From positions 1 to 64,000 of the IMG/VR virus record IMGVR_UViG_3300047160_031539: a DNA stretch of 64,000 bases. One strand, given 5' to 3'. This DNA is from a virus (taxonomy: Duplodnaviria > Caudoviricetes). A program made the position numbers and the translations under genes. Below, one piece after another: positions 9,370-40,630 of this stretch. The notes under the pieces were generated by a model. It did not search any database, had not been told where the DNA came from, and was given only the letters and a program-made list of their open reading frames with translations. Position 1 is the first letter of the stretch. Each line of letters starts with the position of its first letter.

Positions 9370-9736
9370 GAGGGTTCTCTCCTGCGACCTGCGAAAGGAG
9401 GGCGTCGTCGCAAACCTTCCGGAAGTGGACGATGAGGCCGCCCTCCCGCCAAAGGTGCCTGACCAGCGTGTCGTGCCAGTCGGGCCGCAGCCGGATGTGG
9501 GCAGCGGCCAGGTAGAAAGTATCCCCGCAGAAACAGCAGACGTTGTGAAAGCCCGTAGGGTTCGGCCGCCCCAGGGTAAAGGAGACCACCTTGCGGCCCA
9601 CCGGACAGCCAAACGTCTCGCCCGGGTGGTGTTCCGAAAGGTGAACGACCAGGCCGCCCACCGTGTCGCAGGGGCAACCGCAAAAGACACAGTCCCACAC
9701 GCCCTGGCTGACGCCGTGGCTGACGCCGTGGCTCAC
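9362..9736 (-). CDS. C2H2-type zinc-finger protein (paralog)
   Basis: CVFCG...HLSEHH and CFCG...HL..GGL..H; GTGA overlap with the primase stop. Confidence 0.65.
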   Translation of the reverse strand: MSHGVSHGVSQGVWDCVFCGCPCDTVGGLVVHLSEHHPGETFGCPVGRKVVSFTLGRPNPTGFHNVCCFCGDTFYLAAAHIRLRPDWHDTLVRHLWREGGLIVHFRKVCDDALLSQVAGENPHV

Positions 9737-26813: not shown

Positions 26814-27677
26814 TCAGCACCTCCAGAAGGCGAGCACCCGGGCGGCCAGGTGACCCAGGTAGGCGTCCGGGGACCATTCATAACACGGCAGAGAGAAAGT
26901 CGGCAAGGCCAAGGGGTCGATGTTCTCCAGGCGGCCGAAGACGTAATAGCGGTCCTGGCGGTAGGTGTCCTCGTCGTCGATGACGATCACGGGACGGTTG
27001 AAAAAGCCGGCGTACCGCGGCGAGGTCGGCGAGCCGCCGCCGCCGCCCTTGGAGGTCGGCAGGACGAACAGGAAGTGGCTGACGGGGGCGAACATGTCTG
27101 CCAGATCCTCGACCCGGCTCTGCCAGGGGTAAGTGGCCACCTGGACACCTTCCTCGCAGCACCGGTCGATGTAATCGGCGTACTGGACGGCCAGCGTGTC
27201 GGGGCCGCAGGCGTAGAAAGACAACCCGTGCGACCTCGCCCATGCCCCCATCTCCCGGACGTGCTTCTTGGGCTCGACGTGCCCGAACGTGGCCAGGCAC
27301 GTCGGCAAGGTCGCGGCCGGCACCAGGGGGCCGAAGACGGGCATCCGCACCAGTTCGGGGCCGTAGACGTGATTGGCCTGCATTCCCGAGCGGGTCCAGA
27401 CGAAACTCGGGTAGTGGCCCGGCGTGGGCACGCAGTCGTTGTTGTGCAGGACGCCGAAGGGCTTACCGTCGGCGGCCAGGACGCACAGGTGCCGGTCGAT
27501 AAGTTCCCGCGGGTAGAGGTCGGACACCGTCACGGCCAGGTAAACGTCCGCCTCGCACGCCCGGGGGTGGGAGGCGATCACGACCTCGTGGACACTCGAG
27601 TGGCGGGCCAGCGTGCGCAGCCAGTTGCCGACCGCCTCGTAGACCCAGCCGCCCGGGTAAAGAAAAGCGACCTTCAC
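26814..27677 (-). CDS. Glycosyltransferase-like (GT-B) protein
   Basis: KVAFLYPGG; ATFGHVEPKK; located in the glycan cluster. Confidence 0.55.
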   Translation of the reverse strand: MKVAFLYPGGWVYEAVGNWLRTLARHSSVHEVVIASHPRACEADVYLAVTVSDLYPRELIDRHLCVLAADGKPFGVLHNNDCVPTPGHYPSFVWTRSGMQANHVYGPELVRMPVFGPLVPAATLPTCLATFGHVEPKKHVREMGAWARSHGLSFYACGPDTLAVQYADYIDRCCEEGVQVATYPWQSRVEDLADMFAPVSHFLFVLPTSKGGGGGSPTSPRYAGFFNRPVIVIDDEDTYRQDRYYVFGRLENIDPLALPTFSLPCYEWSPDAYLGHLAARVLAFWRC

Positions 27678-31913: not shown

Positions 31914-32259
31914 TCGCCACCTCCTTTAACTCCTGCAGGCCGACCTCGAAGTCGGTCAACTCCTCCGTCCAGAACGACCACTCCCAGACTTGCCCCCCGT
32001 GCCACTTCACGCAGCACAGGCTCACCACCCTCGCCGGCCCCCCGTCCAGGCCGTACAGCACTTTTCCCGTCTCCCCGAGGGCCGCCTTGACCGGGTCCAC
32101 GCGGTCAGCCGGCATGTCAAACAGCACCGTCCAGTTCCGACGCGAACGGCCAGAAAAAACCACCGGGGAGTCGCCGTAACACATCGGCCCGGCGGTCAGC
32201 TGCAGCCGCAGGCCGCCGTACTCGACGAATTGCGGGCCCTTCTTCTTCACCCGAACCAC
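31906..32259 (-). CDS. Hypothetical protein (117 aa)
   Basis: Overlaps both neighbours. Confidence 0.6.
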   Translation of the reverse strand: MVRVKKKGPQFVEYGGLRLQLTAGPMCYGDSPVVFSGRSRRNWTVLFDMPADRVDPVKAALGETGKVLYGLDGGPARVVSLCCVKWHGGQVWEWSFWTEELTDFEVGLQELKEVASG

Positions 32260-34145
32260 CCCCTCGCCTCCATCAGGGCGATGACCTCGTCCGGCTTCTC
32301 CCGGAGGTACAGGAGCGGCAGATAGTTGCCCTTGGACGTGAACGCCGGGTTGGTCCAGGCCGAGGCCATCCGCTCGTCGAAGGCGACCAGCCGCTTGGGG
32401 TGAATGCTGTTACCGTCGGGCCGCCACCACATCGCCACCCGCTTGCCCAGGTAGTGGGCGAAGATCCCCAGACCGCACTGGTAGCTGACGAAGAACTGGG
32501 ACCGCCGCAGGAGGGCCATCGTCTCGCCAATCTCAAATTTCCCGATCAGGTTGTAACAGGAGACCCCGGCCTCCTCCATGCCCCTCTTGACGTAGTGGTC
32601 CCAGTAGGACATGTCGTAAGGGGCCCCGACCAGGACGATCTTGAGGTCGCGGGCGGAAACGGACTTGGCCAGCGTGACCCAGTCCTTGGGCTCCCACAGG
32701 AAGCCGCGGTTGTGGCCTTCGTCCACATTTCCCGATTCGGGGCCCAAATAGAAAGCGACGAAAGGAGAGAGGGCCCGGCCGACCTCGTCGCCCCGCTCGG
32801 TGCCCGACCAGTCGAAGTCGTCCACCACGGACCAGTCGATCGGGTGCTCGGGCAGCCACTCCTCCAGCCGCCGGCCGTCCTCCAGCACCTTGTTGGGCAC
32901 CAGGTAGTGAAAGCCGTTGTGCTCGCCGTCGGACAGGTAACGCCAGCGACCCTTTTCGTCGTTCTTCTTCTCGTCCTCCTCGTAGCCGGCGTCCAGGACG
33001 GGCACGTCCAGGACTGTGGCGGACCTGACGAAGGGGAAGCGTTTGACGAAGGGGATGGCCCGGCGGTCGATCTCCCGGCGCATGTCGCCGCACAGGACCA
33101 GGTCGATGGCCCCCCCGGCGGCCACGGCCTTGATCTTGTGCAGGACCCAGAGGATGTCGCCGATGCCGTTGGGCACGGCGTAGGCCACTCCGGCACCCTT
33201 GGGCCGCTCGAAGCGGAGGACCTCCGAGAGCCACTCGCGGGCGGCGTCCACCATGCCGCCGTCGCCCCGGTAGACGCGGAAGCGGTAGTGGGCCTCGAAG
33301 AAGGAGGCCACCTGGTTGTCCTCGCAGGGCGGCACCGAACGCCAGTCGGCCGGGACCAGGTGCATCGTCGTCGGGCACGGGTCGTGGAACTGCACCGGGC
33401 TGTGGTCCCTCCAGATGGAGAGGGAGGGCGTGCCGGTCGCACTGGCACACTTGCCGGGGCCCGAGTCGATACCCACGAACGCCTCGGCCATGTGGATCAG
33501 GGCCGCGATCGTCTCGGCGTCGCCGCTGCCGAACTCCCCCCAGATGTCGCCCTTGCCGACCGGGGGACGGAAGACTCGCTTGTTGTCGGCCAGGGGGGAG
33601 CGGCCGTCCCAGTCCAGGAGGACCGGCACCCGGCCGGCGGCCAGGGCGTGGTCGATCAGCACCTTGGCCTGCCAGTGGGACAGGTTCTTCTTCCAGGTCG
33701 AGGTGTTGCCCTCGTAGTGGATGACGAAGGCGTTGTACTTCTCCGCCGCGACCTCCCTGCAGCCGATGGACCGCAGGTAGTTGGCCACCTTCCCCCGGCA
33801 GTCGCCCGACAGCTTGATCTCGTAGCGGGCCAGCTCCCGGTCCCAGCCCAGGCCAAAGACCTCCTGCAGGCAGTTGGTGATCTTGGAGTTGGGCCGGTCG
33901 CCGAAGTGCAGGTAGTTCTCGTACCAGCCGATGTCGGCAACCGTGTCGTAGAGCTTGTGCGGTGGCTCGGGCTCCTGGTCGTGCCACACGGCGTTGCAGA
34001 AGCCGCGGAGGGCCGAGTGCTTGCCCCGGCCGCAGCGGACGTCGATCTGCCAGTCGGGGCGGTGCTTTTTCAGGTGCTTGAGCACCACAACGAACTGCAC
34101 CACGTCGCCCAGCCCGTGGCTGAAACGCAGGAGAATCTTGGCCAC
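32247..34145 (-). CDS. Two-domain GT9 glycosyltransferase
   Basis: HGLGDVVQF...FVGIDSGP.. and a second NGIGDILW...LIGK...QCGL..A module. Confidence 0.82.
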   Translation of the reverse strand: MAKILLRFSHGLGDVVQFVVVLKHLKKHRPDWQIDVRCGRGKHSALRGFCNAVWHDQEPEPPHKLYDTVADIGWYENYLHFGDRPNSKITNCLQEVFGLGWDRELARYEIKLSGDCRGKVANYLRSIGCREVAAEKYNAFVIHYEGNTSTWKKNLSHWQAKVLIDHALAAGRVPVLLDWDGRSPLADNKRVFRPPVGKGDIWGEFGSGDAETIAALIHMAEAFVGIDSGPGKCASATGTPSLSIWRDHSPVQFHDPCPTTMHLVPADWRSVPPCEDNQVASFFEAHYRFRVYRGDGGMVDAAREWLSEVLRFERPKGAGVAYAVPNGIGDILWVLHKIKAVAAGGAIDLVLCGDMRREIDRRAIPFVKRFPFVRSATVLDVPVLDAGYEEDEKKNDEKGRWRYLSDGEHNGFHYLVPNKVLEDGRRLEEWLPEHPIDWSVVDDFDWSGTERGDEVGRALSPFVAFYLGPESGNVDEGHNRGFLWEPKDWVTLAKSVSARDLKIVLVGAPYDMSYWDHYVKRGMEEAGVSCYNLIGKFEIGETMALLRRSQFFVSYQCGLGIFAHYLGKRVAMWWRPDGNSIHPKRLVAFDERMASAWTNPAFTSKGNYLPLLYLREKPDEVIALMEARGWFG

Positions 34146-34376
34146 CTACCCCTCCCTGTACGTCGCTATCTCGCGAACGTCCCGGTTCAGAAGCCACTCC
34201 AGGCAGCACGCACACCCCACCAGCTCCTCGCGACGAGTCACCTCAAAGGTGAAAGCAAGTCGCCCACAGGCGACCACACACTCCCCGTTGGCGCTCCCGC
34301 CGCCGTCGGCGTCCCGCAGGAAGTAATGCCACTTCGAGAACGAAGCTGAACTACTCGACGTACTCGACGTGCTCAT
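34146..34376 (-). CDS. Small Cys-containing hypothetical protein
   Basis: Fills the gap; start uncertain because the ATG overlaps the -10 box. Confidence 0.45.
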   Translation of the reverse strand: MSTSSTSSSSASFSKWHYFLRDADGGGSANGECVVACGRLAFTFEVTRREELVGCACCLEWLLNRDVREIATYREG

Positions 34377-34403
34377 TATCTTAACCGACAAACAAAACGT
34401 CAA
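34375..34403 (-). promoter_or_regulatory. Sigma70-type promoter TTGACG-N17-GATAAT
   Basis: Read directly; 9 nt downstream of palindrome copy 10. Confidence 0.7.
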
Positions 34404-34412
34404 CGGAAGGCT

Positions 34413-34436
34413 CAGGTGGCGCAAATGCGCCACCTG
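34413..34436. repeat. 24-bp palindrome copy 10 (loop variant AAAT)
   Basis: 2 nt after stop at 34439. Confidence 0.93.
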
Positions 34437-34438
34437 AC

Positions 34439-35449
34439 TCAACCTGAGCAGCAACGCAAGACCGCCTCGGCCACCGCCTCGGGCCGGATCATCTCCAGGC
34501 AGCGGGGGATGGGCGGGTCGCCGGGGACGGGCTGCTCGCACAAACTGCCGTCCTTCTGGTCGTTGTCGCCCAGGGGGACCGTCCGCGACCGCCAGCAGCC
34601 CCCCTCGCGGCAGCAGGACAGGAGGCCGACCGTGTGCAGGGTCTGCTGCAGCGGGTAGGCGTTCCAGGGCACGGGCTCCCGACCCCCCAGGATGCACACG
34701 TAGGGCTTCTTCGAGGCGGCGGCCAGGTGCATCAGCAGAGTCGTGCCGCCCACGGCCCCCTGGGCGTGGTGGAGCAGGCGGACCAACTGGCGGTCGTCCG
34801 TCTTGCCCCGCAGGTCCACCACGCCGTCGAGGTCGGGGTGGCTGTGGCCGTTGTCCCCCTTGCCGACCTGAACAAATTGCACCCGGCCCCGCAGGAGGTC
34901 CACCAGCCGCTGGTAGTTCCGCTTCCCCCAGTGCTTGGCCGTGTAGTCGCTCTTGGTCCCGGCATTAAGCACCCAATACTGCTGGGCCCGGCCCGTCACC
35001 TCGTGGACCTGGGGCAGCCAGGCCTTCTCCTGCTCACTCAGCCAGATCATGGGCCGGTTGGTCGCCAGCGGGCAGGGGACGCGGAGGTTGTCGGCCAGAA
35101 ACTCACAGTAAGCCTGCAGGAAGTGGATGGCCCTCTGGTTGCACTCGTTGACCGCGGGGTAGTGGGTCTGGCAGACCTCAAAGCCCCGCTGGCGGGCCTG
35201 GTCGAGGGAGACCACGTCAGGGTTGTGCTCCCAGAACGCCTGGGCGGTCGTGTCCACGGCAACCTCGAACTGGCCGGGGTTGGCCCTGTGGAGACTGTGG
35301 ATGGCCGCCGTCATCACCAGCACGTCACCCGGTGACAGGTGGTTGACCAGGATCAGGCGGCGGGGCTCGGGCACGAGGGTTCGCGGCCTCCAGGCACAGG
35401 ACTGACAGTCGTGGAGGGTGATTTCATCAAACGAACCGTCCACTTTCAA
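34439..35449 (-). CDS. GT9 glycosyltransferase (in frame with upstream Cys-rich ORF across one UGA)
   Basis: LSPGDVLVMTAA, KHWG, FVQVG, DLRGKT, MHLAAA. Confidence 0.85.
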   Translation of the reverse strand: MKVDGSFDEITLHDCQSCAWRPRTLVPEPRRLILVNHLSPGDVLVMTAAIHSLHRANPGQFEVAVDTTAQAFWEHNPDVVSLDQARQRGFEVCQTHYPAVNECNQRAIHFLQAYCEFLADNLRVPCPLATNRPMIWLSEQEKAWLPQVHEVTGRAQQYWVLNAGTKSDYTAKHWGKRNYQRLVDLLRGRVQFVQVGKGDNGHSHPDLDGVVDLRGKTDDRQLVRLLHHAQGAVGGTTLLMHLAAASKKPYVCILGGREPVPWNAYPLQQTLHTVGLLSCCREGGCWRSRTVPLGDNDQKDGSLCEQPVPGDPPIPRCLEMIRPEAVAEAVLRCCSG

Positions 35450-35455
35450 GCGGGA

Positions 35456-35496
35456 GGGGCAACGGCACTGGAAGACCTCCAGTTCCTTGTCGCCCC
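35456..35496 (-). other. SECIS-like stem-loop immediately 3' of the in-frame UGA (35498-35500)
   Basis: GGGGCGAC/GUUGCCCC lower stem, ACUGGA/UCCAGU upper stem, apical AGGUCU. Confidence 0.4.
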
Positions 35497-35497
35497 C

Positions 35498-35749
35498 TCA
35501 GCCCGTCGAGCACCAGCGTTTCCGGACGGAGCCGTCCTCGTTGCGGACCCGCCTGTAGAGGTGCGGGCAACGGGGCACCTTGGCGGCAAGGGACCGGATG
35601 TCATTGTCGGCCTCGCGGTCGTAAAGGACCTTGTAGGCCAGGTCGTTGACGTAGAGCCAGCAGACCCGGCAGGACTTCCCGTCCCAGGGAGATCCCGTCG
35701 GCGGCAGCAGGGCATCGGCGTGCCCGCAGGGGCGGCCCATGAGGTTCAA
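35498..35749 (-). CDS. Cys-rich ORF ending at a UGA that is probably a Cys/Sec position
   Basis: CRVC...CPHL...WCSTG* then in frame GGDKELEVFQCRCP...DCQSC. Confidence 0.65.
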   Translation of the reverse strand: MNLMGRPCGHADALLPPTGSPWDGKSCRVCWLYVNDLAYKVLYDREADNDIRSLAAKVPRCPHLYRRVRNEDGSVRKRWCSTG

Positions 35750-36732
35750 CTGGTAATGACGATATTGACGCCTCCGTTACAACAGGAGACGCCGCTGGGC
35801 GGCACACGCAGGTTAAAATTGTCGAACTCAAAGAACGGCGGGGAGCAGGAGGCGCTGGAGCCGTCGTCTTTTTGCGTGGCAAAGACGCTACTATCATTGT
35901 TACAGCAAAAACGCAGTTTGAATTTCGACGGCGTCGGGATGCCGACCGCGTTGTCGCAGAAGAAGGCCATCGCGATCACGCCCTTGCCGGCGCACCTGCC
36001 GTCGTAACGGTCAATAAGGGCGTAAAGCCACCAAATGGGGAAGATTAGTCCCTGCCAAAAGGGATCTTTAATCATGAAGCTCAACGGGGCGGCCAGGTAG
36101 GCCAGGGGCACGACCAGGCCGCCCAGACAGCCGCAGCCCGCCCGGTTGACGAAGGTCGCGACCAAAGTCTGCGGCAGAAGTTGGGCCGGCGGGGTGGACG
36201 GGCAGCAGGCCACCTGGACCGGCGGGGGCCCCCCCGAGGAGGACGCCGACGACGAGTAAGACGAGTGCAGGGAAGGGCTGGTGCTCAGGAGGATGTTGAC
36301 CAGGCCCGCACAGGGCGAATTTAACAGACCGCCGAGGTTGACACCCTTGAACAGGGCGTTGAGGGTCACGTTACTCTCGACATCGACACAGTAAAGATTC
36401 ACCGAGTCGGGCGAGTAGACCTGGCCCCCGACCGACAGTCCGAACTGGCTCGCGGTCAACCCGTCGCCGCCGCAGTAGAAGTCGAGTGGGATGCTCGCAC
36501 CGGGCGTACACGTCAAGATCGGGGCGTTGGCCGTCCAGTGCTGCGTGCCGGGGGTGTTGTTGAGCGTCACAGTGGTGTCGTCCAGACAGCCGCAGCCCGA
36601 GACGTTCGTCAGGCGGGCCGTGATCTGGCTCCACATGTACGGCTGGACCGTAAAATAGGGGGCGCAGCACGGGCACACGACCCGGTAGCGGGGCGGCCCG
36701 GAGGGCGAGGACGAGACGGCGGCAACGACCAT
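35746..36732 (-). CDS. Cys-rich virion/tail-associated protein with two repeated domains
   Basis: CPCC...GCGCLD x2 with a Ser-rich linker. Confidence 0.7.
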   Translation of the reverse strand: MVVAAVSSSPSGPPRYRVVCPCCAPYFTVQPYMWSQITARLTNVSGCGCLDDTTVTLNNTPGTQHWTANAPILTCTPGASIPLDFYCGGDGLTASQFGLSVGGQVYSPDSVNLYCVDVESNVTLNALFKGVNLGGLLNSPCAGLVNILLSTSPSLHSSYSSSASSSGGPPPVQVACCPSTPPAQLLPQTLVATFVNRAGCGCLGGLVVPLAYLAAPLSFMIKDPFWQGLIFPIWWLYALIDRYDGRCAGKGVIAMAFFCDNAVGIPTPSKFKLRFCCNNDSSVFATQKDDGSSASCSPPFFEFDNFNLRVPPSGVSCCNGGVNIVITS

Positions 36733-36744
36733 AGCCCGTACCTC

Positions 36745-37236
36745 TCAGGAAGTGACGATGACGTTGCACATGCCCACGCAGCACGGCATGCCGACCGGGT
36801 CGTTCAGGTTAATGCCGTTGAAGGGCACACTCATGACCGGGTTCTGCTGGCCGTCGGAGCAGTGGCAGACCGGGTGGGGGACCGGCTTGACGGTCTGGGT
36901 GTAGGTCTGGGTGTTGCACTGGACCGTCAGGCGGAAGTCGTCACAGAGCAGGCCCGAGCCGCCGCAGGAGAAAGTCACCGACAAGTTGCCCTGGGGGCAG
37001 GAGCCCGGCCCGACGAGCGGGCCGGAGACCCAGGCACCGGCCTCCGGAGGCCCCGGGGCCCGCGTGAGGGCCACCGTCAGGCCGTCCAGGCAGCCGCAGT
37101 CCTGGCCGGGGATCGCCACGAAGGAGGCGTAGAGCGTGCTCCAGGCGACCGGCACCTGGCTGAACTCCCCCTGACAGCAGGGGCAGAGGGTCAGGTAGCG
37201 CGACGGCCCTGGCGAAGACGAGGCGGGTGAAGCCAT
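36745..37236 (-). CDS. Cys-rich protein, single copy of the same domain
   Basis: CPCC...DCGCLDG..V.L...C.C.; SD GGAGG after palindrome copy 11. Confidence 0.7.
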   Translation of the reverse strand: MASPASSSPGPSRYLTLCPCCQGEFSQVPVAWSTLYASFVAIPGQDCGCLDGLTVALTRAPGPPEAGAWVSGPLVGPGSCPQGNLSVTFSCGGSGLLCDDFRLTVQCNTQTYTQTVKPVPHPVCHCSDGQQNPVMSVPFNGINLNDPVGMPCCVGMCNVIVTS

Positions 37237-37249
37237 GCGAGGTCCCTCC

Positions 37250-37273
37250 CAGGTGGCGCAATTGCGCCACCTG
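37250..37273. repeat. 24-bp palindrome copy 11 (exact)
   Basis: 6 nt after stop at 37280. Confidence 0.97.
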
Positions 37274-37279
37274 ATTCTA

Positions 37280-40200
37280 TCAGGGAACGATCGTAACACC
37301 GATGTTCGCGAAGCGGCAGCAGGGCGTGCCGATGTTGTCGTTGTTGTTGATGCCCGTAAAAGTCAGAGACAGGGGCGAGCAACTGCAAGGGCTCGGGTTG
37401 TAAGTCGTCGAGATCGACGACGTGTTGCACTGGAAGATGAGCTGGAAGCCGGTGCAGGCCGTCTGGCCGGCCGGGCAGCGGAGCTGGAGGTTCAGGGTGG
37501 GGTTGCCCGTGCAGGTCGTCGGGATGTTGGCCGACTGCCAGGAGTTCACGACGCCGTTAAAAGTCAGGGTCACCTGCACCCCGTCGATGCAGGGGCAGCT
37601 CGGGGCCGAGATCGTCGCGTGCAGGACCGCCGGCAGCAGGAACGGGGCGCAGCAGCCGGTCGAGATCGTTCCCCCAACCACCGAGGAAGACGACAGCGAC
37701 GGTAAGGGCGAGGAGGGCGAGGAAGGCGAAATCGCCGAGGAGGACGGCGACGGGGAAGAGGGCGAGGAAGAAAGCGACGGCGAGGAAGGCGAGGACAGGA
37801 GAACCGAGGACGAAGACGACGAGGGGGACGAGGGGCTGCTGGCCGGGCTGACGCAGCAGGGCAGGACGACCGAGATGCCGTTCATGGCCGCCGTGCCGGC
37901 CACGCTGGCCGTGCGGACGCCCGTAGGGCAAGGCGTCGGCTGCTGGAACGACACCTCCGTGCCCAGGTCGCCCACCGAGGTGTCCAGGCCCGAGTCCGTC
38001 ATGCCCGGCGGCGGGGTAATGACGATGCCGCCGATCTCGTGGAAGCTGCAGAAGAGCAGGCTGTTGGGCCCACAGCCCAGGGACGGGGCCTGCGGGTTGG
38101 GGGCATTGGTCTGCTGGCCGGCCCCGGTGGGGGCACCGGCCTGGCCGACCGAGGTACACAGGGCCGTGATCCCGTCGGCCCCGCCCGTCGTGCTCCAGAT
38201 GCCCGGCCCGGGGCTGGCCGGGGCCACCCGCCAGTAGGCGTACCCCTGGGCCGTCGTCCCCAGGGCCGTGAAGGCCCCGCCCGTGGCCAGGAATGTCCAG
38301 TTGGGGTCGGGCGTGAACGTCCCGGCCGTCTGGTCCACGGTGAGCCAGGTCAGCATGATGTCCCCGGCCTGCGTCCCGGGGGGCACGGGCACGCTGACCG
38401 ACGTGCCCGCGTCGTGCGTCCAGCCCCGGATAATGCACTGGCAGCCAGCCGACGACGGGCCCGAGGACGAGACCGAAGGCGACGGCGAGGCAGACAGGGA
38501 CGCCAAGGGCGAGGGAGAAGAGGACAGGGAGACCGACGACGGGAAGGAAGCGGAGAACGACGAGGACAGGGACAGGGCGCTCAGGGACGACGCCGAGGGC
38601 GACGAGGGGGAGGAGGACAGGGAGATGCCGACGCAGCAGGGGACAACCGTGCTGATGCCGGCCATGAAGGCCAGGGGGCCGCTGACGGTGGCGTGGAAGG
38701 GACCGACCATGCCGACCATCGGCTGCCTGTAGGAGACCTCCACGGCCGTCCCGCCCGTGTTGACGACCGTGTCCTGGCCCGACTCCGTGAAGCCCGGCGG
38801 CTGTGTAATGACCGCCGGGTTGACGGGCAGTTCGTGGAAGCTCGCGAAGACCAGGTTGTTGGCCGCCGTGGCCACGACGGCCGGGGCCAGGGCGTTGTCC
38901 GAGCGGGTGATCTGGGCCACGCCCGTGGGGATGCCGGCCTGGCCGATCGCTGCCATGACCATCGAGATCTCGTAGTTGTCCACCCAGTTGCTGGCCGGCT
39001 CGTTGGCCCCGGCGACCTTGTAGTACACGAAGCCGCGGATGCGGAAGTTCGTCGCCCAGGTCACGGGCGGCGATTTGACGCACAACGTCCAGGACGGGTC
39101 CGGCACGAAGGCACCGCCGCCACCACCCGGGTTAACGTCCTGCCTCGTCGTGTCGGCCGTGATGAAGGCCAGGAGCAGGTCGCCGGGCTGGTAGCCGGGG
39201 GGCGGCAGGATGGACAGGGTCTCGACACTGTAGCCCTGGACAAAGCCGCGGACGATGCAGGGGCAGTAGGACGACGACGACGACAGGGACAAGGAGCGGG
39301 CCGAGATCGAGGGGGCCGAGACGGAGGAGGCCAGGACGCAGCAGGGCAAGACGACCGAGGCCCCGGCCATCGTGCGGACGCCCGGCACCGAGGCCGTCCG
39401 GATACCCGTGGGGCCCACGGCCCCGAACTGGTAGGAGACCTCCGTGCCCAGGTCGCCCACCGCCGTGTCCAGGCCGCTGTCCGTCATGCCGGGCGGCTGG
39501 GTAATGAACGCCCCGCCGAACTCGTGGAAAGAGCAGAAGAGCAGCCCGTTGGGGGCCCCCGGCGTCGAGGGGGCCTGCGGGTTGGGCGAGGCGGTAAGCT
39601 GGATTGCCCCGGCGGGAATGCCGGCGTTGCCGACCGCGGTCTCCAGGACCGTCATGGCGATCCCGTCCACGCCGTCGGACCAGGCCGCCGCCGGCTCATT
39701 GGCCTGTGCGACCTTCCAGTAGACGAAAGCCCTCAGAGACTTGTCGCTCCCGTAGAGCCAGTAGTCGCTCCGGAGCAGGAGGTTCCAGGACGGGTCGGGA
39801 CTGAAGGAGCCGCCGTTGGGGTCACCCGCGTCGTCGTAGGACGTGTCGGCCGTGATGAAGGCCAGCAGGATATCGCCCGGCTGCGTTCCGGCCGGCGGGT
39901 TCACCAGCAGGAACGTCTGGCCGATGGCAATGGCCCCGTAGGACCAGCCGCGGATCTCGCACTGGCAGGCCCCCGAGGCGGAGGAGACCGACGCACTGGG
40001 CGAGGCCAGCGTGATCGGCAGGGCCGGCGACGACGGGGAGGACGGGCCCACCAGGGGCGGCCCCACGGGCAAGGGCGGCCCGACCGAACTCGGCGAAAAC
40101 GACGAGGACGGCGACGACGGCGAGGAAGCCGGGGAAGAAACGTGGGCCGCCGACGAGGCCGCCGAGGAGGCCACCGCCGGGGAAGACGCCACGGGAGACG

Positions 40201-40630
40201 TTATACCGGCCGAGACCGCCGAGGAAGGCAAGAAGCCGAAGGGAAACTGCAGGCCCGAGGGTGAGGACGACGAACTCGAGCTGACCGGGGCAAAACTCAG
40301 CAGGGACGACGAGGAGAGCGACGGGAAGGGCGCCGGCGCCGGACAGCAGGCCAGGCTGATGGCGTAGAGGGGCAGGCCGGCACCGCCGGGGTGGTTGCCG
40401 ACCAGGCGGCCGCGGTAGGAGCCGGGCACGACCGGGATGCCGTTGGGCTCCCAGACGTAGCAGGCCTCGCGGTCGCGGAGCTTGCCCTGCCCGTCCCACT
40501 TCTGCACGTAGGCCGCGTAGACGCCGCCGCCGGCCGACCCGGTGACCCGGACCAGCTCCCGCAGGGGCGGGTACGACGGCAGCCGGGGCCCCAGAAAGGG
40601 CGGGTTCGTGTTGGTGCTGGCCCGGACCAT
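37280..40630 (-). CDS. Large modular tail-fibre-like protein (1116 aa)
   Basis: Shared N-terminal module, three repeats C.C.IRG...PPG.Q.GD...VLPCC separated by Ser/Pro linkers, Cys-rich C-terminal domain. Confidence 0.75.
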   Translation of the reverse strand: MVRASTNTNPPFLGPRLPSYPPLRELVRVTGSAGGGVYAAYVQKWDGQGKLRDREACYVWEPNGIPVVPGSYRGRLVGNHPGGAGLPLYAISLACCPAPAPFPSLSSSSLLSFAPVSSSSSSSPSGLQFPFGFLPSSAVSAGITSPVASSPAVASSAASSAAHVSSPASSPSSPSSSFSPSSVGPPLPVGPPLVGPSSPSSPALPITLASPSASVSSASGACQCEIRGWSYGAIAIGQTFLLVNPPAGTQPGDILLAFITADTSYDDAGDPNGGSFSPDPSWNLLLRSDYWLYGSDKSLRAFVYWKVAQANEPAAAWSDGVDGIAMTVLETAVGNAGIPAGAIQLTASPNPQAPSTPGAPNGLLFCSFHEFGGAFITQPPGMTDSGLDTAVGDLGTEVSYQFGAVGPTGIRTASVPGVRTMAGASVVLPCCVLASSVSAPSISARSLSLSSSSSYCPCIVRGFVQGYSVETLSILPPPGYQPGDLLLAFITADTTRQDVNPGGGGGAFVPDPSWTLCVKSPPVTWATNFRIRGFVYYKVAGANEPASNWVDNYEISMVMAAIGQAGIPTGVAQITRSDNALAPAVVATAANNLVFASFHELPVNPAVITQPPGFTESGQDTVVNTGGTAVEVSYRQPMVGMVGPFHATVSGPLAFMAGISTVVPCCVGISLSSSPSSPSASSLSALSLSSSFSASFPSSVSLSSSPSPLASLSASPSPSVSSSGPSSAGCQCIIRGWTHDAGTSVSVPVPPGTQAGDIMLTWLTVDQTAGTFTPDPNWTFLATGGAFTALGTTAQGYAYWRVAPASPGPGIWSTTGGADGITALCTSVGQAGAPTGAGQQTNAPNPQAPSLGCGPNSLLFCSFHEIGGIVITPPPGMTDSGLDTSVGDLGTEVSFQQPTPCPTGVRTASVAGTAAMNGISVVLPCCVSPASSPSSPSSSSSSVLLSSPSSPSLSSSPSSPSPSSSAISPSSPSSPLPSLSSSSVVGGTISTGCCAPFLLPAVLHATISAPSCPCIDGVQVTLTFNGVVNSWQSANIPTTCTGNPTLNLQLRCPAGQTACTGFQLIFQCNTSSISTTYNPSPCSCSPLSLTFTGINNNDNIGTPCCRFANIGVTIVP

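Follow-up and report, generated by a model that had tools for sequence, protein, structure and literature searches.

An in-frame UGA at a conserved cysteine position of a phage GT9-type protein is probably decoded as selenocysteine

The window analysed here, a stretch of 64,000 nucleotides (nt), covers positions 1 to 64,000 of the IMG/VR virus record IMGVR_UViG_3300047160_031539, a Caudoviricetes phage genome of 73.6 kb with an estimated completeness of 86% and a G+C content of 68%. In the part of the window considered here, where all genes lie on the minus strand, an 80-codon open reading frame (ORF; 35740–35501) is followed by an ORF resembling glycosyltransferases of family GT9 (35497–34442), and the two share one frame with a TGA codon (35500–35498) as their sole separator. 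This arrangement had been pointed out in a preliminary description of the DNA and is borne out by frame and translation; the read-through sequence given there was likewise obtained again, namely ...RWCSTG-U-GGDKELEVFQCRCP..., where U stands for selenocysteine (Sec) at the UGA. The same description had placed the start of the gene at TTG 35749 and the length of its product at ~436 aa. Alignments of homologues favour ATG 35740 (MGRPC...), located 5 bases past the stop codon of the upstream gene, so that the read-through product comprises 433 aa (Table 1). The terminal TGA (34441–34439) is a true stop, with further stops within 9 codons and then a palindrome that is found genome-wide. Judging from sequence comparisons, the product of this gene is very probably a 433-aa selenoprotein and a member of a large phage-borne family characterized by the motif C-x-x-G-U.

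Table 1. Coordinates of the predicted recoded gene and of its parts in the window
Feature	Position	Strand	Remarks
Whole gene, predicted to be recoded	34439..35740	-	433 codons, putative Sec codon 81, terminal TGA 34441-34439; one frame throughout
Codons 1-80, first part of the Cys-rich N-terminal domain	35501..35740	-	Listed in databases as a small protein of its own
In-frame TGA, probably read as Sec (residue 81)	35498..35500	-	Cys column in homologues
Hairpin of the Sec insertion sequence (SECIS) type within the coding sequence	35455..35497	-	From folding; upper stem 35483-35478 with 35472-35467, loop 35477-35473
Remainder of the Cys-rich domain, residues 82-120; Cys 92, 94, 112, 115	35381..35497	-	
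GT-B glycosyltransferase body, GT9 type, residues about 121-433	34442..35380	-	Pfam and Foldseek

The TGA codon is covered without differences by 151-nt Logan contigs from three soil-metagenome runs (X2, 35489–35639; X3, 35430–35580; X4, 35420–35570). The contigs of X3 and X4 span the whole hairpin that follows the codon, and that of X2 begins inside it. The A of the codon, which the preliminary description had singled out as the base to verify, is present in the contigs of all three runs; at the low depth of Logan contigs minor TGC variants could escape, and one of the runs may be the source sample. A one-off assembly error at the TGA is unlikely. No RNA data set was among the sequencing runs listed for this sequence. 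A global reassignment of TGA was also considered and rejected: TGA is the main stop codon of the phage and closes about 60% of its coding-like ORFs, more stops come after the terminal TGA of the gene itself, and no tRNA gene was found in the window.

A database search with the read-through protein returned 771 relatives, and the fused architecture appears to be the norm, because many of these relatives are 410–440 aa long and cover 94–99% of the query. The preliminary description had considered the UGA to occupy a probable cysteine (Cys) position, and the alignment agrees with this fully: the column is Cys in all 30 full-length homologues aligned, and the same is seen in an alignment of the N-terminal domain (A4). 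The first 120 positions of the 30-homologue alignment hold six invariant Cys residues, including the UGA column, and two more that are nearly invariant. Conserved Cys residues before the UGA are 5, 24, 27, 58 and 77, while after it C92, C112 and C115 are invariant in the alignments. Sequences with TGA at this column (Sec forms) read C-x-x-G-U (C-S-T-G-U in the window), whereas most sequences with a Cys codon there (Cys forms) read C-x-x-C. An adjacent Cys pair, T-T-C-C-G, is seen in some Cys forms (P0003, P0004 and P0008; columns 150–170 of alignment A1) and represents a third variant of the knuckle.

The closest uninterrupted homologue, encoded by L081 2656–3930 (+) from Logan run SRR14194035, shows 65% identity and has TGC at the column. 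It is annotated as a protein of 309 aa, the gene caller having picked a late ATG although the ORF is open across the whole Cys-rich domain. Since this ORF has TGC and was shortened by the gene caller only, short database entries are not all Sec forms, and the idea that homologues of 309–311 aa are hidden Sec forms was rejected for P0022/L081, whose upstream ORF is open with TGC. Most of the short viral GT9 forms truly lack the N-terminal domain. Of the close homologues, a single one bears a name, as a hypothetical protein of a Gemmataceae bacterium.

The same TGA was found repeatedly in distant relatives. Among contigs sought without requiring a TGA, eight further diverged ones (L005, L087, L089, L090, L091, L092, L104 and L105) carry TGA at the Cys column, so that together with the window all nine unbiased sequences (9/9) have TGA there; TAA or TAG never occurs, although TGA closes only about 60% of the phage's coding-like ORFs. 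In the N-terminal domain, the TGA-bearing contigs are about 28–44% identical to the window, with 52% overall for the viral contig L005, in which the TGA stands at exactly this column (...SCPVG-U-GGHVKELDVFQC...). Several database proteins of ~340 aa start at MLDVFQC or MKVFNC, just past the column, and the contigs of four such proteins (L087/L088, L089, L090, L091, L092) each contain, upstream and in the same frame, a small ORF whose stop is a TGA at the Cys column.

Further cases came from a hidden Markov model (HMM) of the first 79 positions, which was run against 1.84 billion cluster representatives (50% identity) and gave 131 matches. About 40 of these are proteins of 60–106 aa in which the match reaches the last residue. 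When such short matches were fetched, 34 of 35 were found to end 2–5 residues past the equivalent of Cys77, 27 of them exactly in C-x-x-G. One of the proteins returned corresponds to the window's own first ORF; this database entry of 80 aa stops at the UGA. Two short matches viewed as DNA, L104 and L105, show the TGA and then, in frame, ...LDVFQC.... The contig L104 (345–530 (+); ENA ERZ28594784, 532 bp) has ~35 in-frame codons past the putative Sec-UGA, after which stops appear (TGA, TAA); these later stops could mean that the reading frame has shifted, that the end of the contig is chimeric or that the copy is decaying. Metagenome contigs were also scanned for a pattern that required both the TGA and the conserved hairpin core, so that the hits are not unbiased; this yielded four contigs (L113–L116) with three distinct sequences, all with the Cys-rich domain in frame upstream. 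Two of them, L115/L116, are close to the window (...RRWCQTG-U-GGEKELDVFQCRCPGRL...). The corresponding scan of viral contigs for more Sec forms returned only L005, which was already known. The column is thus occupied by either Cys or UGA, with Cys in 30/30 uninterrupted homologues and TGA in the eight unbiased relatives, as one would look for in a homologue check of the kind suggested in the preliminary description.

That description had also named a mundane alternative, a TGC to TGA mutation or an error. A private nonsense mutation, a pseudogene or a sequencing or assembly error in one contig would need a single third-position C-to-A change, and the closest uninterrupted homologue L081 does have TGC. 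However, contigs of three runs carry the same TGA, it also stands at the column in at least 11 other diverged sequences, dozens of database proteins end there, and both halves of the gene keep a G+C content at third codon positions typical of coding DNA (0.86 and 0.91). We consider this explanation extremely improbable; the three-run contigs and the recurrence of the TGA in diverged relatives effectively exclude it.

Folding confirmed that a hairpin lies directly 3' of the UGA with the apex AGGUCU 20 nt on, as noticed earlier. The hairpin is 43 nt long and occupies nucleotides +1 to +43 past the UGA (35497–35455), with a lower stem GGGGGCGAC/GUUGCCCCU, an upper stem ACUGGA/UCCAGU and the loop GGUCU. 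The loop begins at +21, right after the A of AGGUCU at +20, i.e. 20 nt separate the UGA from the loop. Folded within 71 nt of sequence, the hairpin reaches -35.4 kcal/mol, and of 200 dinucleotide shuffles 1 was equally stable (z = -2.96). The likeness of AGGUCU to the SECIS element of Escherichia coli fdhF, also proposed earlier, holds as well: in strain MG1655 the UGA of fdhF is followed by 18 nt and then by GCA-GGUC-UGC. Stability against shuffles does not discriminate here, because the z-score of this genuine SECIS element is only -0.19. Nor is a UGA followed by a strong hairpin by itself a SECIS element, because the terminal TGA of the gene also has a strong palindrome after it. This second structure (34413–34436 (-)) is a palindromic hairpin with 11 bp of perfect pairing, CAGGUGGCGC-AUUU-GCGCCACCUG (-30.3 kcal/mol, z = -3.97); it lies just past the terminal TGA and represents one copy of the genome-wide palindrome of 24 bp.

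The consensus for bacterial SECIS elements comprises a loop of 3–9 nt, an upper stem of 4–16 bp, a G in the first two loop positions, a distance of 16–37 nt between UGA and loop, and a minimum free energy of at most -7.5 kcal/mol (PMC13188914, summarising Zhang and Gladyshev). With the criteria applied by eye, the hairpin of the window falls within this consensus (loop 5 nt, upper stem 6 bp, spacing 20 nt, -32 to -35 kcal/mol), and so do all nine Sec forms, which have a perfect apical stem of 5–9 bp and a loop N-G-U-N(-U). UGA and loop are 20 nt apart in six of them; two have a distance of 23 nt and one has 35 nt. The apical hairpins, written as 5' arm, loop and 3' arm, are ACUGGA-GGUCU-UCCAGU in the window, GCUGGA-CGUGU-UCCAGU in L005, L087 and L104, ACUGGA-CGUGU-UCCAGU in L105, GCUCGA-CGUGU-UCGAGU in L089 and L092, GUUGAA-GGUC-UUCAAC in L090, and CUUGAA-AGUG-UUCAAG in L091.

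The apical stem is built from the codons for L-[EDK]-V-F-[QENK], and the G-U of the valine codon occupies loop positions 2 and 3. One pair shows a compensatory change from G-C to C-G: the leucine codon CUG occurs with the glutamine codon CAG, and CUC with the glutamate codon GAG. In L090 and L091, the rare leucine codon UUG is used where pairing with AAC/AAG needs UUG, and the core GCUGGACGUGUUCCAGUG is retained in L104 despite A/U-rich neighbouring sequence. With the same codon-aligned stretch as input, RNAalifold predicted a consensus structure of six pairs for the nine Sec forms, but no consensus for six Cys forms. The hairpin, whose conservation was among the points raised in the preliminary description, is kept in the UGA forms and is not kept in the Cys forms as a group.

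The main rival explanation for this pattern is a conserved split, in which the UGA truly ends translation, an 80-residue piece and the GT9 enzyme arise as separate products (the latter made by re-initiation or from its own start), and the hairpin acts in coupling, in pausing or in stabilizing the mRNA. Two genes are predicted by gene callers in every case, short GT9 forms lacking the N-terminal domain occur in other phages, so the enzyme is able to work alone, and an AUG is found 1–5 codons past the UGA in L087, L089, L092 and L104. No AUG follows in the window, L005, L090 or L091, however; the first start codon past the UGA in the window is TTG 35449, and a start there would lose Cys92 and Cys94. 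Moreover, the stop would remove a Cys that is invariant in 30 uninterrupted homologues, inside a conserved Cys cluster, and the stop is always TGA, at the same codon, in 9/9 unbiased cases. The N-G-U-N loop and the spacing of 20–35 nt match the SECIS consensus, and they have no stated role in re-initiation. Taken on these grounds, a conserved split appears improbable.

Decoding of the UGA as Sec would require the proteins SelA, SelB and SelD and tRNA-Sec, and neither SelA nor tRNA-Sec was found in the 73.6-kb phage record. The protein family is present in only three GTDB representative genomes, a Gemmataceae metagenome-assembled genome (MAG; G001), a Pirellulales MAG (G002) and one further MAG. 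The first two, which represent candidate host lineages, carry all the sel components named in the preliminary description: SelA (E about 1e-146 in G001 and 1e-142 in G002), SelB (385 and 329 bits; cut-off 242), tRNA-Sec (73.8 and 69.7 bits; cut-off 47) and SelD. SelA is present in 57 of 61 genomes sampled from the Gemmataceae family of G001. Furthermore, the SelD gene of G001 has an in-frame TGA (L109 2394–2392 (-), contig C245; ...SCAG-U-AGK...) with a hairpin GCGCA-GGUUC-UGCGC ~32 nt downstream, so this candidate host lineage appears to make at least one selenoprotein of its own.

G001 also contains a portal gene (G001:C24:1896–3134, L111) 56% identical to that of the window, on a different contig than its GT9 homologue L083. 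Because G001 holds both genes, a related phage is likely to be binned with this genome or integrated in it. Weaker portal homologues lie within large contigs of four other genomes of the same family, and a CRISPR-like repeat (clustered regularly interspaced short palindromic repeats) of the phage gave no real match in 201 Gemmataceae genomes. A host in the Planctomycetota, probably in the Gemmataceae, is plausible on the basis of these sequence comparisons.

Read-through independent of Sec deserves consideration at this point, since the phage encodes no Sec machinery. The hairpin would then stimulate near-cognate decoding of the UGA as tryptophan, Cys or arginine, giving a low level of full-length protein and a regulated ratio of short and long products. 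A UGA with a downstream structure is compatible anatomy for such a process, and near-cognate insertion of Cys would restore the ancestral residue. Nevertheless, the Sec forms have G, C or A directly after the UGA and thus share no leaky context; recoding would affect precisely a column of invariant Cys, a hallmark of Sec/Cys pairs; the loop motif and spacing fit elements of the SelB type; and the candidate host lineages almost all carry SelA. We therefore regard read-through of this kind as very improbable.

Several observations count against decoding of the UGA as Sec and temper the conclusion. The excess of pairing in the Sec forms is moderate, with 85.7% of cells paired as compared to 80.3% in shuffles, 19 of 500 of which reach the observed value. 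Strict covariation amounts to one pair, two Sec forms use a shifted pairing register, and fold z-scores are unremarkable in several Sec forms. The stem is in part dictated by the peptide L-E/D-V-F-Q in GC-preferred codons, and SECIS-like structures are commoner in GC-rich DNA (PMC12013277). The Cys forms L001 (ACUGGA-GGUAU-UCCGGU) and L002 are also able to form the stem; among the six Cys forms, only L001 combines a perfect stem with a G in the first two loop positions, and its hairpin could be a remnant or merely the appearance of the peptide L-E-V-F-R in GC-rich codons. A scan of positions 34000–37000 with Rfam models at E values up to 10 returned no SECIS family. This blank says little, because we know of no general Rfam model for bacterial SECIS elements within ORFs. 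The host is proposed only from composition, the homologues in Planctomycetota MAGs and the 56%-identical portal gene in G001. Moreover, Sec is normally found in the active sites of oxidoreductases, so that its presence in a glycosyltransferase would be unusual.

Weighing these points, we put the probability that the UGA of the window is decoded as Sec at roughly 85%. Insertion of Sec, as proposed in the preliminary description, gains support from the Cys column, the recurring UGA, the hairpin and the machinery of the candidate hosts. The Cys column, the conserved UGA and hairpin and the phage's lack of Sec machinery were seen in the sequences themselves, whereas binding by SelB, actual insertion of Sec and a host in the Planctomycetota, probably one of the Gemmataceae, are inferred.

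Only the C-terminal part of the read-through protein belongs to a Pfam family, with residues 206–367 (34640–35125) matching PF01075 (Glyco_transf_9) at E 7e-10 and 39.1 bits (cut-off 22). The AlphaFold2 model has a mean predicted local distance difference test (pLDDT) score of 86.6, with 81–93 for residues 61–110. Foldseek matched its GT-B body to WaaF (1psw), a Veillonella GT9 protein (3tov), TibC (4rap/4rb4) and WaaC with E values of about 1e-11 to 1e-9, whereas a sequence search of the PDB returned only WaaF, at E 0.005. None of the lipopolysaccharide (LPS) heptosyltransferase equivalogs WaaC, WaaF and WaaQ in NCBIfam was matched above its cut-off (best score 30.2 bits; cut-offs 135–569). 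In its PF01075 match above the cut-off and its GT-B fold the phage protein resembles the GT9 heptosyltransferases WaaC, WaaF and TibC, but it differs from them by the N-terminal Cys/Sec-rich domain of ~120 residues and by scores far under the LPS equivalog cut-offs. Besides the Cys-rich N-terminal domain, there is a C-terminal cluster of Cys residues (376, 377, 382, 401 and 414).

For the N-terminal domain of ~120 residues, no Pfam, NCBIfam or PHROG family was found, and no fold relative was found in the PDB (best E 0.6 with Foldseek, best Z 2.6 with VIA-align), which does not show that the fold is new. In the AlphaFold2 model, residues 57–117 form a small beta-sheet and a helix, with the conserved Cys residues at strand ends and turns, and the predicted arrangement of these Cys residues resembles metal sites of the knuckle type. 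By inference, Sec81 would take the place of the second Cys in a C-x-x-C knuckle, where it would either bind a metal or form a selenylsulfide redox pair with Cys77.

TibC, an iron-containing dodecameric protein O-heptosyltransferase, is a suggestive comparison, as the phage protein likewise has extra conserved Cys residues and adjoining serine (Ser)-rich candidate acceptors, and TibC ties with WaaF in the Foldseek search. Protein O-heptosyltransferases of the TibC/AAH type (BAHT) are dodecamers with an iron finger of four Cys residues, and enzymes of the TibC type modify Ser-rich autotransporters. By analogy, the phage enzyme probably glycosylates Ser-rich virion proteins encoded nearby (37280–40630 and others).

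If the UGA is decoded as proposed, the phage mRNA would be translated in a Sec-decoding host, where the host SelB-GTP-Sec-tRNA(Sec) complex would bind the hairpin right after the UGA and SelB would deliver Sec at 35500–35498, giving the 433-aa protein, while ribosomes without recoding would release an 80-residue fragment. In the full-length product, the Cys-rich domain of ~120 residues with its C-x-x-x-U motif (family consensus C-x-x-G-U) would precede the GT9-type enzyme, and Sec, as metal ligand or redox partner, would affect a probable glycosyltransferase of Ser-rich virion proteins. On the whole, we consider it likely that these proteins constitute a large new family of phage selenoproteins and the first Sec-containing glycosyltransferase, that Planctomycetota phages in soil and groundwater borrow the SelB of their hosts, and that the Sec knuckle domain controls or assembles a virion-glycosylating enzyme.

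Elsewhere in the window, a weak match to a portal family and a clear match to a helicase were found. Upstream of the gene on the same strand lie genes for Cys- and Ser-rich proteins (35746–36732 (-), 36745–37299 (-) and 37280–40630 (-)). Two of these Cys/Ser-rich neighbours are paralogues ending in N-[IV]-x-[IV]-T-S, and the neighbour of 1116 aa has long poly-Ser tracts; these proteins are candidate acceptors of the glycosyltransferases. On the other side, a protein of 632 aa (32247–34145 (-)) may hold a further GT9-like region, as indicated by a weak PHROG match. A second Sec gene in the phage was considered at two other same-frame TGA junctions, 9733–9735 and 26814–26816 (-), and rejected, as both are ordinary gene ends with no SECIS-like hairpin; at 26814–26816, the stop is overlapped by the start codon (ATG) of the next gene, which is in another frame.

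The proposed mechanism is the known bacterial one. As in bacterial genes with a SECIS element inside the ORF, such as E. coli fdhF, a UGA at a Cys position is followed directly by a hairpin in the coding sequence. The apical loop is small and contains G followed by G or U (GGUCU in the window, GGUC in fdhF), it is spaced from the UGA by 20 nt in the window and by 18 nt in fdhF, and SelA, SelB, SelD and tRNA-Sec would be needed in trans. Unlike bacterial selenoprotein genes, this one is carried by a phage without machinery of its own, and its protein lies outside the listed oxidoreductase families of selenoproteins. It also differs from bacterial SECIS genes in that the upper stem is made from L-[EDK]-V-F-[QENK] codons and the loop holds the G-U of the valine codon. 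What appears to be new is therefore the carrier, the protein family and its apparent breadth of dozens of 50%-identity clusters.

To our knowledge, viral selenoproteins have been reported only for a few eukaryotic viruses. In literature that pairs selenoproteins with phage, viral or virome terms, we found no description of a phage-encoded selenoprotein and none of Sec in a glycosyltransferase. Full-text searches returned no paper that treats both selenoproteins and heptosyltransferases, the sole co-mention being a study on selenium nanoparticles that is not related to the subject. In the BSepDB paper, which covers 111 bacterial families, words that begin with phage, viral or glycosyl do not occur in the main text.

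A selenoprotein of this kind would have several consequences. Dozens of entries of the family are split in databases into an orphan of 80–100 aa and a truncated GT9 protein, an annotation error if the UGA encodes Sec. The family would provide a new, non-oxidoreductase context for Sec, in which a Cys-rich, probably metal-binding or redox domain is fused to a GT-B enzyme. If confirmed, the finding would mean that phages rely on a host recoding system that they do not encode, so that their host range and productivity would be tied to the Sec trait of the host and to selenium availability. Sec codons in phage genes could then mark hosts for host prediction, and part of the phage life cycle would depend on the supply of selenium.

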